DNA of 64,000 bases from IMG/VR virus record IMGVR_UViG_3300028797_000009, positions 1-64,000 of that record. One strand, written 5' to 3'. The DNA comes from a virus. Taxonomy: Duplodnaviria; Heunggongvirae; Uroviricota; Caudoviricetes. A program made the position numbers and the translations under genes. This document shows positions 941 to 47,678 of the stretch, in pieces. The notes under the pieces were generated by a model. The model had not been told where the DNA came from and made no database searches. It worked only from the letters and a program-made list of their open reading frames with translations. How positions within the stretch are numbered: the first letter of the stretch is position 1; every line of letters starts with the position of its first letter.

Positions 941-969
941 ATTATATATGAAAAGTATCAAAATGTCAA
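941..969 (-). promoter_or_regulatory. sigma70-like promoter of the conserved phage promoter/leader family (minus strand)
   Basis: Reverse complement reads cATTGACAttttgatacTTTTCATATATAATaaaaatg, followed by a hairpin (gtaaaggt..acctttac) and an AAAGAAAGGAtatatATG RBS. Same cassette as at 18783, 19214, 20569, 34833. Confidence 0.5.
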
Positions 970-987
970 TGGTTATTTTTAATTTCG

Positions 988-1989
988 TCAAAAATTGTTT
1001 CGATATTTGAGGTAGATTTTGTTCGTGAATGTTCTAATCCTGCCTTTGCGAAGGTTGTATATCTGGGATTTGTCGAATTTATCTATCTCGGATGTGCCAA
1101 GTTCTTTGTCTGTAAGTTTAGAATATTTGTCGTAAAGATGATAAAGTCGTTTTGTTTCGGTGTGGATTTTGCTGTCTAATTCGTTTTGCCAAGAAAGCAT
1201 TTGCTTCATAAATTCATCGGGAATATCTAAGTCCTCAACACGACCACCTTTATAGCAAAGTTCCCATACTCGATTTTTAGTGCAATCTGAAATCATACGG
1301 TGCATATTTAGGAACCATTCGGTTTTGAGTTTTACTCTATCTTCGGTGTTTTGATTAAAAGCAACGACTCCTTCGACTTCCATTGTGAGATATTTTTTAG
1401 CTTGTTCGAATGTAAATTTTTGTGCAATTTCGAATGGGCAATTGGTAGGGTTGGGGATAACTTCGTGCCCGTTTACCCGCATAGCCCAACAGACTAATCT
1501 AGGGGTTGGATGTTTAGTGACTATAATTCCAGCATCTTCTTCAAAATTCTGAAGTAGTTCGCAAAAGTATTCAGTATTTTCCTGTAATTTGCCTCTAATT
1601 TCGTCCGTGATGAAGTTTTCAGCGAAAAAGGTATATTTATTACAGAATGAACCTCGGGATGAGGTTATAAGCCCATAATGGCTGTCTTTTTTAATGGAAA
1701 TATAGTATCCGTCTAGTTTTTCGGATATAACACAATTTTTTAGGTCAAGATGGGGAGCAAATTTTTCTGAAGCATTAAAGAATTTTTTAGGACCTTGGAT
1801 AATTATTTGGTTGTCGTCAGAAATAACTAGCCCTCTGGTGTGAATGGTAATATTATCCCATTTCTCCTCCCATGTTGTTTTTTGGGTGTAGTTATAGATG
1901 GCGATAGGTAAATCAGGATGATGGGATTTGCGAATATATCCTTTGTCGCAATAGTCGGATAGTTTAGTGAAGAACTCCTGATTAAACAT
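988..1989 (-). CDS. ATP-dependent polynucleotide ligase family (probable RNA ligase)
   Basis: 333 aa. Covalent nucleotidyltransferase motifs: I SEKLDGYY (KxDG), III TEYFCELL, IV EGVVAF, V VKLKTEW. Size and order fit Rnl-type ligases. Confidence 0.6.
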   Translation of the reverse strand: MFNQEFFTKLSDYCDKGYIRKSHHPDLPIAIYNYTQKTTWEEKWDNITIHTRGLVISDDNQIIIQGPKKFFNASEKFAPHLDLKNCVISEKLDGYYISIKKDSHYGLITSSRGSFCNKYTFFAENFITDEIRGKLQENTEYFCELLQNFEEDAGIIVTKHPTPRLVCWAMRVNGHEVIPNPTNCPFEIAQKFTFEQAKKYLTMEVEGVVAFNQNTEDRVKLKTEWFLNMHRMISDCTKNRVWELCYKGGRVEDLDIPDEFMKQMLSWQNELDSKIHTETKRLYHLYDKYSKLTDKELGTSEIDKFDKSQIYNLRKGRIRTFTNKIYLKYRNNF

Positions 1990-2552
1990 TAACCCTCCGA
2001 GTTGTATTTTGTGTATGCGTTTTGTGCGTCATTGTATGATTCAACCATATTGGCTAATTTTCTACTGCCAGCAAAGAGGTTTACATATCTGTCATAAATA
2101 ACCTGCATACGATTGAGATGGAATTTCCATTCGATTTCTTGTCTTTGGGCTTTAATGTATTTGGGTTGAGTTTTTACCCAACATTCACGGTCCTTGGCTG
2201 AACTAAGTCCGAGATTTTCCTTTTCCTCATTACAAATTTTCCATAACTCTGCAAGAATGGTTGCCGTATCTAATTTCGCATATTCATATGAACGTTGAAG
2301 TTTGGCGAGGAATAGACCTGCCTCGGCAATCATATCTGGGTCGTGGGAAAGATGGAAACGAATATCCTCTTCAGAGAAAGATTCAAAATCACCATTTCGA
2401 ATTGCTTTGAGCATCACTTGTTGGGCTTCCTCAACCTTTGTGACATATTTTTGGAGTCGCTCAATGCGTTTCTGTTCCGATTCGGTTAAAACAGGCTCTT
2501 CGATTCGTGAGGCGATTTTGAGTGCTTCAACTTGGGGTAGTTTCGTTTCCAT
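1989..2552 (-). CDS. hypothetical protein
   Basis: 187-aa ORF; stop/start overlap with the upstream ligase gene suggests translational coupling. Confidence 0.5.
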   Translation of the reverse strand: METKLPQVEALKIASRIEEPVLTESEQKRIERLQKYVTKVEEAQQVMLKAIRNGDFESFSEEDIRFHLSHDPDMIAEAGLFLAKLQRSYEYAKLDTATILAELWKICNEEKENLGLSSAKDRECWVKTQPKYIKAQRQEIEWKFHLNRMQVIYDRYVNLFAGSRKLANMVESYNDAQNAYTKYNSEG

Positions 2553-2561
2553 ATAACTCCT

Positions 2562-3107
2562 TTACCAACTTGCTCTATAAATAAAACTGGTTGACCAATC
2601 GTCTTTTTCCTCCAAGTATGGAGTGAGATATTTAACGGTTGATTCTAGGTCTTGGAGATAATACTCATCGTACTCGGTAGAGCCGAAGAAAAATCCAGAT
2701 GTGGTTGGGAGTAAATCTTCTGCTTCAGTAGTATCTTTTAAGTATCTTACGGTTTCTTGTTTCTCCTCGTTAGTGAGAATGTCTTTGTAGGTGATTTCTT
2801 TTTTGGCGATATTTTCCTTATTGTTAAGAATTCTATTGCACCTTGCGACTAATTCCATTAAGTCTGCTCTTGACACATATATATCTTGGCATTCATCAAC
2901 TCCCTCTCCGCAATGCTGTATAAAGAAGTTATGAATTTGGTTTGCTTTTCGCCAATATGCAATTTCTTCTTCGACATATCTAACTTTTTTAGTGTCAACT
3001 TGGTTTTCTGTCTCGAAGCCTTTTTTATGGAGTTTGATTGAAAACTCTAACTCCTTGTCATAAGGCGAGATGTAAGTTTTTTTATAAAGATATGAGTCTA
3101 GTCCCAT
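2562..3107 (-). CDS. hypothetical protein
   Basis: 181-aa ORF, first gene downstream of the minus-strand promoter at 3139-3169. Confidence 0.5.
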   Translation of the reverse strand: MGLDSYLYKKTYISPYDKELEFSIKLHKKGFETENQVDTKKVRYVEEEIAYWRKANQIHNFFIQHCGEGVDECQDIYVSRADLMELVARCNRILNNKENIAKKEITYKDILTNEEKQETVRYLKDTTEAEDLLPTTSGFFFGSTEYDEYYLQDLESTVKYLTPYLEEKDDWSTSFIYRASW

Positions 3108-3138
3108 TTTTTTATCCTTTCTTTTACTTTGATATTTT

Positions 3139-3169
3139 GATTATATATGAAAATTGACTATACTTCAAG
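3139..3169 (-). promoter_or_regulatory. sigma70-like promoter of the conserved family (minus strand)
   Basis: Reverse complement: TTGAAGtatagtcaaTTTTCATATATAATcaaaat ... AAAGAAAGGATAAAAAAATG. Confidence 0.45.
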
Positions 3170-3706
3170 TAGTTTTTTGAATTTTTCTTGGATTTCTGGG
3201 TCTGGGTATAATCTTTTTACTATATAAGCGAGGTCATCATCTTTAATATCTGGGTTGTAAAGGAGAAGGTCGCACCAATCTCTTTCGGTGATGAAAAATC
3301 CCCATTGGGTTTGAGCAATAATTTCCGGGCTTAATTTTTCTGCCACTTGGAGATGGTGTTTTTCTCCAAAAGATTTACATTCCACAAAACCGTCTGAATT
3401 GACAAGTCCATCTGGTGAATAACCGATATTGGAGAATTTGTCGTTAATGATAAATCCAGCATTGTAGATTGGAGTATATACTTCTGAATAAATTTCTTTT
3501 GAGTCGGCTTCTAGGATGTGCCCACGATATGTCCAATAATTTCCTCTGAAAGAATTTTCGTTTTTGGCTTTTTCTTCGAGGATTGATTGAGGGGAATGAC
3601 CTCGCAAAAGTTTAATAGCGTCTGTGCCAGTTAAGTATTGTTTGCGAAGGTTGTGCCACTCTTGTGAACCTTGTTTAACCTCGTCCTCTGGGATGATGTT
3701 AATCAT
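3158..3706 (-). CDS. YqaJ/lambda-exonuclease-like PD-(D/E)XK nuclease
   Basis: 182 aa. N-terminal QGSQEWHNLRKQYLTGTDAIKLL is typical of YqaJ-type viral recombination exonucleases. DGLVNSDGFVECKSF gives the D..E.K catalytic triad. Confidence 0.6.
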   Translation of the reverse strand: MINIIPEDEVKQGSQEWHNLRKQYLTGTDAIKLLRGHSPQSILEEKAKNENSFRGNYWTYRGHILEADSKEIYSEVYTPIYNAGFIINDKFSNIGYSPDGLVNSDGFVECKSFGEKHHLQVAEKLSPEIIAQTQWGFFITERDWCDLLLYNPDIKDDDLAYIVKRLYPDPEIQEKFKKLLEV

Positions 3707-46723: not shown

Positions 46724-46738
46724 TATAATAGGAATTGT

Positions 46739-46921
46739 ATGATTACGGATGTAATTTTAGATAAACTACCAGAGGGGCGTTATAAGGATTATTTTGAAGC
46801 CCATAAAGAAGAGTATATTGATTGGGATTATGACCACGAAGATTATCCTCTCTGGATGTTTTTCCCTGCTGAGTTGAATGATATAGACGACGAACAGAGT
46901 AGAATCGTAAAAGAGTTGTAG
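46739..46921 (+). CDS. hypothetical protein
   Basis: 60-aa ORF. Confidence 0.35.
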   Translation: MITDVILDKLPEGRYKDYFEAHKEEYIDWDYDHEDYPLWMFFPAELNDIDDEQSRIVKEL

Positions 46922-46922
46922 T

Positions 46923-47183
46923 CTATTTTGTCCAATCCCAGAATGCTTTTTCGAGTTTTGGATATTTGGTTAAAATATGTGCAAAACGAGTTTTTTCGTC
47001 TATCTTTTCATCTGAAAATAAGTATTCTAGGATGAAGTCTTTATTTTCTGGTTCAAATTTTGAAAAATATGGTAAATATTGTTTGGCTGTGTTAAACCTT
47101 TCAATGATTACTTTATTTGTGGCTTTGTAGGTCATTTTTATTCCTCCTTTTCGTTCTTTTCCAATATCTCCTCGATTTTCCAC
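46923..47183 (-). CDS. hypothetical protein (antisense island gene 3)
   Basis: 86-aa ORF. Confidence 0.45.
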   Translation of the reverse strand: MENRGDIGKERKGGIKMTYKATNKVIIERFNTAKQYLPYFSKFEPENKDFILEYLFSDEKIDEKTRFAHILTKYPKLEKAFWDWTK

Positions 47184-47410
47184 ACTAATGTGTTCTGGGT
47201 GATGTGTTGGATGTGTTTTGCAATAATTTTTGCTTTTTCTTCTTTTGGTAATGTGAAATATTTATCTTCTTCTATGCTATCCATACTTGCGATTGCTCTG
47301 CCGTATTCGTAGTCATCTACAAGAAGTCCGAGCATCTTTTCGTCAAATAGGTTGTCTTTTACTTGATTGATTGTTAATACGATTTCCATAATTTTCCTTT
47401 CTTTAATCAA
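47138..47410 (-). CDS. hypothetical protein (antisense island gene 2)
   Basis: 90-aa ORF. Confidence 0.45.
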   Translation of the reverse strand: MIKERKIMEIVLTINQVKDNLFDEKMLGLLVDDYEYGRAIASMDSIEEDKYFTLPKEEKAKIIAKHIQHITQNTLVWKIEEILEKNEKEE

Positions 47411-47597
47411 ACATATGGTAGTAGAATTCGTCCCACTCTGACATAAACTTTTCTTTTTCTGTTGGGTGGAGATTATCGTCTGCCCAATTACTTGCGAGTT
47501 GACGGGCTCTACCTTGGTTGATTTTACCGTCTATGTTGTCCAACCTGACCGATTCGTTGTAAAGTGCTACGAATGTGTTGAAATATTTGCTTTTCAT
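47403..47597 (-). CDS. hypothetical protein (antisense island gene 1)
   Basis: 64-aa ORF with the family RBS aaagaaaggagaaaaaccaATG on the minus strand. Confidence 0.5.
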   Translation of the reverse strand: MKSKYFNTFVALYNESVRLDNIDGKINQGRARQLASNWADDNLHPTEKEKFMSEWDEFYYHMFD

Positions 47598-47657
47598 TGG
47601 TTTTTCTCCTTTCTTTTATCTTTTCTAGGAGGTGGGTTCCATCCCCCCTCCCATTAT

Positions 47658-47678
47658 TATTATATATGAAAAGTCAAA
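47658..47678 (-). promoter_or_regulatory. conserved-family promoter plus leader (minus strand)
   Basis: Reverse complement: TTGACTTTTCATATATAATaataatgGGAGGGGGGatgg...AGATAAAAGAAAGGAGAAAAaccaATG, nearly identical to the cassette at 20569. Confidence 0.5.

Follow-up and report, generated by a model that had tools for sequence, protein, structure and literature searches.

Recurring promoter-to-ATG cassettes in an uncultured phage: probable strong expression modules for accessory genes and homology patches for their shuffling

A window of 64,000 nt from an uncultured phage of about 86 kb (IMG/VR record IMGVR_UViG_3300028797_000009) carries a cassette, extending from a promoter to an ATG, that recurs on both strands. 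All coordinates given here are positions in this window. The cassettes are probably autonomous expression modules of maximal strength for accessory genes, read by the sigma-A RNA polymerase of the host, and they probably double as homology patches for gene shuffling. Gene shuffling at such cassettes is a known way of phage genome evolution; its occurrence in this uncultured phage family is new. An earlier note on the same DNA had described a cassette of about 70 nt at eight or more sites, eight of which it listed, and had ascribed its conservation to a common regulatory input beyond sigma-70 recognition.

When the core TATAATRAAAATGGGGG was searched, four exact copies were found on the plus strand (18805, 19239, 20592 and 34857) and one copy with two mismatches on the minus strand (47648). 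At up to three mismatches the core gave nine matches, compared with 1.43 ± 1.25 in shuffled sequences, and none of 100 shuffles reached nine. The motif AATGGGGGRAG was present four times in the window (0.16 expected), the 11-mer TAAAAGAAAGG eight times without mismatch (0.21 expected) and TTGAY-N18-TATAAT, with at most one mismatch, 38 times (7.7 expected). A repeat search grouped the cassette copies independently (families D4-D6 and D9; inverted pairs I1-I12). The content described in the earlier note was present at all eight of its sites and recurs far above chance.

Aligned on the -10, the eight sites are all near-consensus TTGAtt-17-TATAAT promoters. The full cassette with a G-run leader, however, was found at only five of them (18782, 19216, 20569 and 34834 on the plus strand, and 47659 on the minus strand). 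Two others, 941 (-) and 3140 (-), consist of the promoter and the TAAAAGAAAGGA-ATG block with different leaders (a hairpin with GTAAAGG, and ATCAAAG, respectively), and 9573 is a promoter only. Thus only the promoter is common to all eight sites. The same promoter class has about 20 members in the window, about a dozen of them beyond these eight (including 31769, 39184, 7326, 23718, 21506 and 38251).

About 20 kb around the ParB gene was taken from seven relatives, L029, L026, L030, L027, L028, L031 and L032 (ParB identity of 98, 82, 80, 76, 62, 57 and 54 %, respectively), and L057, L058 and L060 supplied the surroundings of the 153-aa gene (47806 in the window). A promoter matrix was created from a set of 65 promoters, curated by hand in the window and in six relatives, and the consensus was read outside the hexamers used for selection. 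The counts were 49/65 for A at -22, 56/65 for T at -17, 36/65 for C at -16 and 55/65 for T at -14. Also preferred were C at -36, T at -29, -27 and from -20 to -17, and A at -15 and -13. On the start side the promoters are A-rich from -5 to -2, with T at -1 and a purine (G or A) at +1, and on the upstream side they are A-rich from -45 to -39, often as AAAAAAGTA, which we take to fit the UP-element proximal subsite AAAAAARNR of the E. coli literature. Nearly all 65 promoters share TTTTCATA-TATAAT-RAAAAT-G with or without a leader. Since it is also found in promoters without a leader, the conserved stretch between the -10 and the first G belongs to the promoter class as a whole.

The -10 context contains a 19-bp inverted repeat, TTTTCAT-ATATA-ATGAAAA, centred on the -10, through which a dimeric phage repressor might shut the cassettes off together. 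Perfect copies of the palindrome lie at 20584 and 34849, six more promoters carry it with one or two mismatches, and its 10 matches exceed the 1.96 expected. However, every good copy coincides with a -10 and the search found no stand-alone copy. The two arms show no covariation (C is constant at -16, although -6 can be either G or A), and no candidate for the repressor was found. In addition, a scan of one genome per species found the same 21-mer of the -10 context at ordinary chromosomal promoters with a proper -35 in unrelated Firmicutes (Clostridia, Lachnospiraceae and Bacillales). Because of these unrelated occurrences, the palindrome looks like generic strong-promoter context, namely a T-rich spacer, a near-palindromic TATA and an A-rich discriminator, and we consider an operator very unlikely. 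In IMG/VR, the 21-mer gave four single matches, on large unrelated contigs.

Upstream of the -35, A-tracts follow a period of 10-10.5 bp over about 50 bp, and the observed periodicity was reached in 0 of 500 shuffles. As the phased A-tracts extend upstream of the -35, the functional unit is about 130-150 bp and not 70. The promoter, leader and ribosome-binding site (RBS) of the shorter cassette are real, but the upstream A-tracts and the stem-loops had been overlooked. The position of the stem-loop varies: it lies before cassette 1 and surrounds the -35 of cassette 2, whereas cassettes 5 and 6 have it downstream of the -10 (cassettes are numbered as in Table 1). The hairpin that holds the -35 of cassette 2 in its loop recurs in L026 (13200) and L028 (11782).

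The 3' part of the cassette is TAAAAGAAAGGA with an ATG 5-9 nt downstream, present at seven of the eight sites. Shine-Dalgarno (SD) sequences of the phage tile TAGAAAGGAGGTGATC, and the cassette block corresponds to the AGAAAGGA end of this ladder. The tiling thus points to a 16S 3' end of Firmicute type (...CACCUCCUUUCU), and the AGAAAGGA core is presumably complementary to the Firmicute-type 16S tail CCUCCUUUCU, as in B. subtilis-type tails. The SD form AGAAAGG(A) precedes about 13 genes, of which about 10 are the first after a promoter and three are internal (22965, 35668 and 47138 on the minus strand). In this count the genes of cassettes 1, 2 and 4 were added by eye, since an upstream ATG had been listed as their start. 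The block also serves internal genes without a promoter (24261 and 35651). Because the ladder is shared and internal genes use the block, we concluded that the RBS half is the strongest ordinary RBS of the phage and is not cassette-specific. A conserved T+AAAA on the 5' side of the block lies outside the 16S pairing.

The upstream ATG in AAAATGGGG was also considered as a leaderless start or as the start of an upstream open reading frame. Its frame is that of the gene in cassettes 1 and 2 but not in cassette 4, and in cassette 3 it is followed by a stop after six codons. It was rejected because the frame is inconsistent among the cassettes and its A is only 5 nt from the -10.

When the 5' region of the 72-aa gene was compared among four phages, the stretch from the -35 through the G-run was almost invariant, and orthologous cassettes keep it at a ParB identity of only 62-76 %. 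Divergence was found upstream of about -40 and in the coding region, and the central part of the leader carries indels. As described before, conservation therefore continues beyond the -10 into the predicted transcript and RBS, and it is under constraint. High pairwise similarity among the copies could also be expected if they were recent neutral duplications without function. However, the cassettes are kept element by element at 57-82 % ParB identity while adjacent DNA diverges, and they match functional consensus elements at fixed spacing, so that neutral duplication is highly improbable.

The relatives also differ in what lies between the cassettes. In L029, the end of ParB, the terminator and the cassette-1 spacer TTTTGATT are followed directly by the cassette-2 leader with its 72-aa gene. 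One passes into the other within TATAATGAAAATGGGGG, and the 434-bp unit with the 113-aa gene is absent. An assembly at k=141 cannot make this join from a repeat of about 17 nt. In the case of L028, the unit of cassette 2 and the 72-aa gene and the segment 19515-20521 are in the opposite order to the window, and the BLASTn blocks end inside cassettes or at the SD/ATG (window 18850, 20649, 19195 and 20629). In L026 and L030 the 113-aa gene and cassette 2 form one block (window 18839-19290), and a different gene follows the ATG.

A second variable place is the minus-strand slot upstream of the 153-aa gene, at 47.6 kb. There the promoter is kept with its slot-specific discriminator AATAAT, and the leader and cargo differ (three orphan open reading frames, or ORFans, in the window; YodL and a 62-aa protein in L057; YodL in L058 and L059; nothing in L060). 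The slot genes of the window stand on the plus strand after ParB in L027, and its YodL gene stands behind cassette 4. Gene content thus varies among the relatives both after ParB and at the slot. The cargo consists almost entirely of ORFans, and YodL is the only Pfam family among its genes. Also present in the phage are genes for a Rad52-family annealase and a YqaJ-type exonuclease, a pair that could be the candidate machinery for short-homology exchange between cassettes. Recombination between copies, which these comparative data show directly, had been overlooked when the conservation was explained by a regulatory input.

Together these observations suggest the following mechanism. The cassette would be read by RNA polymerase carrying the primary sigma factor of the host (sigma-70/sigma-A type), and an optional stem-loop would end the upstream transcript. 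Up to five A-tracts in a phase of about 10 bp, the nearest one serving as the UP-element proximal subsite, would be followed by the -35 TTGATT, a 17-bp T-rich spacer (..A.TTTTCATA), the -10 TATAAT, the AT-rich discriminator RAAAAT and a start on G. A leader nearly free of pyrimidines would then lead to TAAAAGAAAGGA, acting as an extended SD, and to the ATG. As each element raises expression, a small accessory or host-takeover gene would be expressed strongly and autonomously at any location. The copies would stay alike through selection on every element and through homologous exchange, and the same exchanges would delete, permute, replace and relocate genes between cassettes.

Several points weigh against this reading. 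Junctions are expected in intergenic DNA anyway, since junctions within genes are selected against. Because intergenic DNA is largely taken up by the cassettes, junctions and cassettes would partly coincide without any special role, and a specific case for homologous exchange comes only from the in-register chimeras (L029 and the slot). L029, the cleanest case, is a single contig with no more than 130 nt of sequence beyond the junction. No convincing stem-loop was found at cassettes 3 and 4. The G-run and the conserved T+A4 on the 5' side of AGAAAGG are not fully explained by contacts of RNA polymerase or ribosome. Promoter activity, start site and early timing are predictions from consensus, and the 16S tail and sigma-A use are deduced from the SD ladder and promoter shape of the phage itself.

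In four copies the first G of the run lies exactly 7 nt after the -10, and the run places five to seven G at the predicted start; the leaders measure 24-48 nt. G-run leaders contain no C and few U. Being almost free of pyrimidines, they are unstructured (wholly unpaired in the minimum free energy fold; z about 0 against shuffles). The leaders of 47659 (-) and 941 (-), in turn, start with hairpins (-17.4 and -8.3 kcal/mol, respectively) that leave the SD free. Among the relatives, a G-run was found in L027 (10765 and 12040), L028 (11782), L029 (10666) and L031 (10858). L026 and L030 have TTTTCATA-TATAAT-AAAAAT, GTAAG/GTAGG in place of the run, and then TAAAAGAAAGGA. The run of cassette 2 is polymorphic in length, with 7 G in some near-identical strains (L049:3960-3975 and L050:380-395) and 6 G in the window (19251-19256). 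Exact searches of IMG/VR with the G-run core gave 13 single matches, all of them terminator hairpins of unrelated phages.

Two other roles of these bases were rejected. Each leader has at most two G-tracts, too few for an intramolecular G-quadruplex. A second -10, GAAAAT, with GGGGG as its optimal discriminator would lie 23 bp from the -35 and lacks a TG extension.

Homopolymers of at least 3 nt at or just after the start are a known trigger of reiterative initiation that responds to nucleoside triphosphates (NTPs), and reiterative initiation was reported at 15 % of S. agalactiae start sites, hence as pervasive in a Firmicute (PMC8812562, PMC4448216). If it took place at the G-run, the output or the 5' end of the transcript would follow the GTP/ATP pools of the host without any further factor, which is compatible with strong expression from the cassettes. 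The fixed distance of the run from the -10, its retention down to 57 % ParB identity (L031 10858) and its polymorphism between near-identical strains (6 or 7 G) are in line with this idea. However, L026, L030 and the window copies at 941 (-) and 39184 carry GTAAG/GTAAAG instead, and because these copies and close relatives do without it, the G-run is dispensable for cassette function. Slippage usually lowers the productive yield, which would be odd for an otherwise maximised promoter, and the start site itself is a predicted one. GG/GA-rich initial sequences may also simply favour promoter escape (PMC5961368). For the G-run copies, reiterative initiation is the most concrete form that an additional input could take, but at the cassettes it is accordingly a doubtful proposal.

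It is possible, though we would not count on it, that the 5' end acts as a stabiliser of the mRNA. An SD-like polypurine tract that binds 30S, or a hairpin at the 5' terminus, would then block decay that depends on the 5' end (RNase J1/Y type); this too is compatible with strong expression. A polypurine sequence is said to stabilise the 5' end of SP82 early RNA. In the cassettes, a polypurine tract (GGGGGRAG or GGAGG) lies at the predicted +1 to +9, with GGAGG in cassette 2 and GGGAGG in cassette 5. The tract of cassette 5 pairs with CCCACCUCC, a copy of the anti-SD, and is SD-like for this reason. In copies that lack a G-run (941 on the minus strand, and the 47.6-kb slot of L057), the leader opens with a hairpin at exactly +1. 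On the other side, the argument is one of resemblance, and several cassettes of relatives have neither G-run nor hairpin (L058, L026 13200). The SP82 polypurine stabiliser of Hue et al. 1995 is cited in PMC7509114.

Regulation in trans was also weighed, in which a phage RNA-binding protein or small RNA would act on the leader/SD block and co-regulate the cassette genes. In its favour, the 11-mer TAAAAGAAAGG is conserved beyond the part that pairs with 16S rRNA, and three relatives encode a candidate RNA of about 85-110 nt between ParB and the first cassette (L026:10674-10776, L030:10668-10778 and L027:10671-10753). This candidate has its own promoter (TTGTGA/TTGTGT-17-TATAAT), a conserved 5' stem GUGAUUU/AAAUCAC, in which L030 has G-C for A-U as a compensatory change, and a rho-independent terminator. 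Its fold z-scores are -2.8, -4.4 and -1.9 in L026, L030 and L027, respectively. A single-stranded segment, CCUUUCUUUUA, is the exact complement of the 11-mer and of the cassette block UAAAAGAAAGG.

However, no counterpart RNA gene was found in the 64-kb window, L028 or L029, and free same-sense copies of CCTTTCTTT were found only in the three relatives that encode the RNA. The block also serves the internal genes mentioned above. When the candidate RNA was searched in IMG/VR, 103 matches were obtained, nearly all of which are ordinary SDs read in antisense. Three matches were left after a crude filter, one sequence among them occurring twice, and these were dissimilar to the candidate. The middle of the cassette leader varies in length and sequence and is predicted to be unpaired, and the Rfam 15 covariance models gave nothing at any cassette at E ≤ 1 (only four tRNAs reached the gathering score). 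We therefore consider a trans-acting regulator unlikely. The phage RNA-binding regulator or RNase processing site suggested in the earlier note is unsupported in the window, and most of the extra conservation has ordinary explanations. A common input may nevertheless act at the G-run (reiterative initiation or a 5' stabiliser) or at the SD block (the anti-SD small RNA of the relatives). The interpretation is partly supported insofar as the constraint beyond the hexamers is real.

More generally, shared control beyond promoter strength, be it reiterative initiation at the G-run or the UAAAAGAAAGG block as target of an anti-SD small RNA with the seed CCUUUCUUUUA, seems rather unlikely. If the G-run had such a role, the output of early accessory genes, or a protective poly-G 5' end, would track the GTP/ATP state of the host. 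If the anti-SD RNA had it, translation of every cassette gene could be shut off at once, and the RNA could lie in the remaining 21.7 kb or so of the phage. Either would make a phage-wide regulon defined by a mobile cassette.

The elements of the cassettes and related promoters are listed in Table 1.

Table 1 Predicted elements of the cassettes, related promoters and recombination genes in the window
Feature	Span	Strand	Upstream region and promoter	Leader, block and coding region
Cassette 1	18743-18850	+	Terminator hairpin 18743-18769; -35 TTGATT 18782-18787; -10 TATAAT 18805-18810	G5 18817-18821; TAAAAGAAAGGA 18831-18842; ATG 18848 of 113-aa ORFan (18848-19189)
Cassette 2	19199-19287	+	Hairpin 19199-19231 with the -35 (19216-19221) in its loop; -10 19239-19244	G6 19251-19256; TAAAGAAAGGA 19268-19278; ATG 19285 of 72-aa acidic protein (phrog_3939)
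Cassette 3	20510-20646	+	Phased A-tracts 20510-20568; -35 20569-20574; -10 20592-20597	GGGGGAAGGGGGAAG from 20604; AAAAGAAAGGA 20628-20638; ATG 20644 of 79-aa ORFan
Cassette 4	34790-34903	+	Directly 3' of large terminase gene; phased A-tracts; -35 34834-34839; -10 34857-34862	G6 34869-34874; TAAAAGAAAGGA 34884-34895; ATG 34901 of YodL-like protein
Cassette 5	47595-47745	-	Within structural module; four to five 10-bp-phased A-tracts 47688-47745; -35 47687-47682; -10 47664-47659; discriminator AATAAT	5'-terminal hairpin GGGAGGGGG/CCCACCUCC 47652-47627 (-17.4 kcal/mol); TAAAAGAAAGGAG 47618-47606; ATG 47597; three ORFans downstream (47597-46923)
Cassette 6 (partial type)	879-1000	-	-35 TTGACA 969-964; TTTTCATA-TATAAT 954-941; AAAAAT	No G-run; hairpin GUAAAGGU...ACCUUUAC (934-910) starts leader; TAAAAGAAAGGA 898-887; ATG 881 (105-aa ORFan)
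Cassette 7 (partial type)	3105-3200	-	A-rich upstream; -35 TTGAAG 3168-3163; TTTTCATA-TATAAT 3153-3140; CAAAAT	No G-run; short leader; TAAAAGAAAGGA 3126-3115; ATG 3107 (181-aa protein)
Promoter-only member	9573-9601	+	TTGATT-17-TATAAT, spacer TTTCCATA	About 130 nt conserved non-coding; second promoter 9734
Promoter-only member	31769-31803	+	TTGATT-17-TAGAAT-GAAAAT	Non-coding leader of about 170-260 nt, then glycosyltransferase gene
Related cassette, upstream of portal region	39184-39247	+	TTGAAA-17-TATAAT	Leader ..ATGTAAAG..; TAAAAGAAAGGA 39229-39240; ATG 39245
Phage recombination genes	3158-4328	-		Rad52-family annealase 3699-4328; YqaJ-type exonuclease 3158-3706

The window had no nucleotide match to deposited phages. 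Its large terminase (33360-34781), of Terminase_3 type, is at most 32 % identical to that of any cultured phage, and the best cultured matches are Cellulophaga, Flavobacterium and Bacteroides phages. Besides the recombination genes, the window encodes a portal protein, four tRNAs, QueC, two ParB-N paralogues and HicA. The sequence is present on 85.7-kb metagenomic contigs (ena:ERZ27257203 k141_9073243 and JGI 3300033463 Ga0310690_10000474), and SRR9008933 and ERZ27268086 are among the other data sets that contain the phage. ParB homologues define a large family of such contigs, mostly of 80-86 kb. The scan of one genome per species found no member of the family. In JGI metagenome contigs, nothing was found for the alignment of the 72-aa protein or for the 21-mer CATATATAATRAAAATGGGGG, although the phage is recorded in JGI samples.

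The two ParB-N paralogues (17521-18733) are in tandem, about 50 % identical to each other, and lie directly upstream of the variable cassette region. The pair is kept in most of the relatives fetched; L031 has one called gene and L032 four ParB-like segments. Other members of the promoter class stand before long non-coding stretches or small genes. The promoter at 9573 is followed by about 130 nt of conserved non-coding DNA (9602-9733; ..GTAATGGA..TTTACAAACATYA..GGAGTTTAACC..) that ends with the hairpin AACCCCAATGCGATAGGGGTTAA just before the promoter at 9734. Counterparts were found in L026 (about 1400-1525), L027 (about 950-1076), L028 (about 764-894), L029 and L030. The stretch has no Rfam match and is possibly a small RNA or a long leader. 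The non-coding leader after the promoter at 31769 (31798-32058; ..TCATCAAGGRRAGRGGCGG..GATAACGGCTA..) has a riboswitch-like position upstream of a family-2 glycosyltransferase gene, with no Rfam match at E ≤ 1 (counterparts in L026, about 18135-18383, and L027, about 17870-18120). A structured insert of about 150 nt (..CCACTAGTTATTTCTAGAGTAGRCTAGTGG..GGTACACCGC..GCGGTAG..) follows the promoter before the SSB gene in L026 (about 5500-5650), L027 (about 5240-5390) and L030 (about 5510-5660), and is absent from the window (13900-13933) and L028. A HicA-toxin-family gene (7373-7564) lies directly behind the promoter TTGATT-17-TATAAT with its 11-nt spaced GGAAAGGAAAGGAGG leader (7326-7372).

The coding strand is purine-loaded from 4001 to 46000, with a GC skew of +0.26 to +0.46 in most 2-kb windows and 0.16 around 30-32 kb; the skew of this plus-strand gene block is far above typical phage values. 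QueC and a Vut_1 protein (putative vitamin uptake transporter family) are encoded at 14444-16382, and genes of these types can, we presume, point to 7-deazaguanine DNA modification. Proteins of 1351 and 1335 aa and their neighbours (48273-52328, 52367-53602, 56320-57648 and 57660-61667) share repeats of 45-190 nt at 60-80 % identity (D1-D3, D7 and D11-D13), and these large proteins look like shuffled tail-fibre or receptor-binding modules.

If the cassettes are expression modules and homology patches, a portable unit from promoter to ATG both expresses and relocates accessory genes, and natural strain variants catch the exchange. The cassette consensus would then mark the starts of transcription units, and likely early or host-takeover genes, in genomes of the family, and cassette recombination would also account for assembly breaks and for strain-level variation in gene content. 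For low-GC Gram-positive hosts, the cassette is predicted to be a compact expression module and apparently a very strong one. Leads to phage-wide control after initiation are the start at the G-run and, in the relatives, the anti-SD small RNA.

Comparable elements are known in several other systems. The Bacillus phages SPO1 and SP82 have strong early promoter/RBS sets before host-takeover genes, with curved A-tract DNA upstream. The cassettes resemble these in their near-consensus sigma-A promoters, unusually strong SDs, A-tracts upstream of the -35 and polypurine, SD-like 5' end. However, there is no sequence relationship, and the likeness is one of sequence features only. We know of no described role of the SPO1/SP82 promoters in gene shuffling.

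In the early promoters of coliphage T5 (N25 and others), strength depends on the initially transcribed sequence (Kammerer et al. 1986, cited in PMC5961368; PMC12464699), and purine-rich or GG/GA-containing initial sequences favour productive escape (PMC5961368). In the cassettes, too, conservation extends downstream of +1. T5 initial sequences, however, are A/T-rich and not a G homopolymer, the host belongs to a different class, and no recombining promoter-to-ATG cassette is known in T5. In the case of B. subtilis pyrG, which starts with GGGC, the addition of poly-G responds to CTP and takes effect through an attenuator further downstream (PMC8812562, PMC7039003, PMC4448216). The cassettes share with pyrG-type promoters a run of at least three G at the predicted start of a sigma-A promoter, but they have no attenuator, the base after the run is A, and slippage is only supposed.

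The promoter-early stem-loop cassettes (PeSLs) of the T4-like phages RB49/phi1, PST and nt-1 (Arbiol et al. 2010, PMC2839356; Comeau et al. 2014, PMC4122927) consist of a promoter of sigma-70 consensus with AT-rich DNA upstream of it, a stem-loop whose position varies and which often contains polyG, an SD and an ATG. They cluster in hyperplastic regions before ORFans, where recombination with crossovers between the -10 and the SD/ATG deletes, inserts and replaces genes (PMC2839356, PMC4122927). By their sequence, the cassettes of the window share with PeSLs the sigma-70-like promoter, the AT-rich upstream region and the SD and ATG at the 3' edge. They also share the location in variable regions, the ORFan cargo and the indels and replacements between copies, and the L029 crossover likewise falls between the -10 and the SD/ATG. 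In contrast to PeSLs, they belong to an unrelated phage lineage with Firmicute-style signals, their A-tracts are strictly phased, the stem-loop is not constant, and the leader lacks pyrimidines and carries a G-run at +1 together with an extended AGAAAGGA SD. PeSLs are also known for mini-circles and for promoter/terminator activity, whereas the present cassettes are known from sequence alone. Shuffling of the PeSL type would thus extend beyond T4-like phages into a large uncultured family of phages of about 80-86 kb. Because this phage is unrelated to the T4-like phages, its cassettes are analogues and not homologues of PeSLs.

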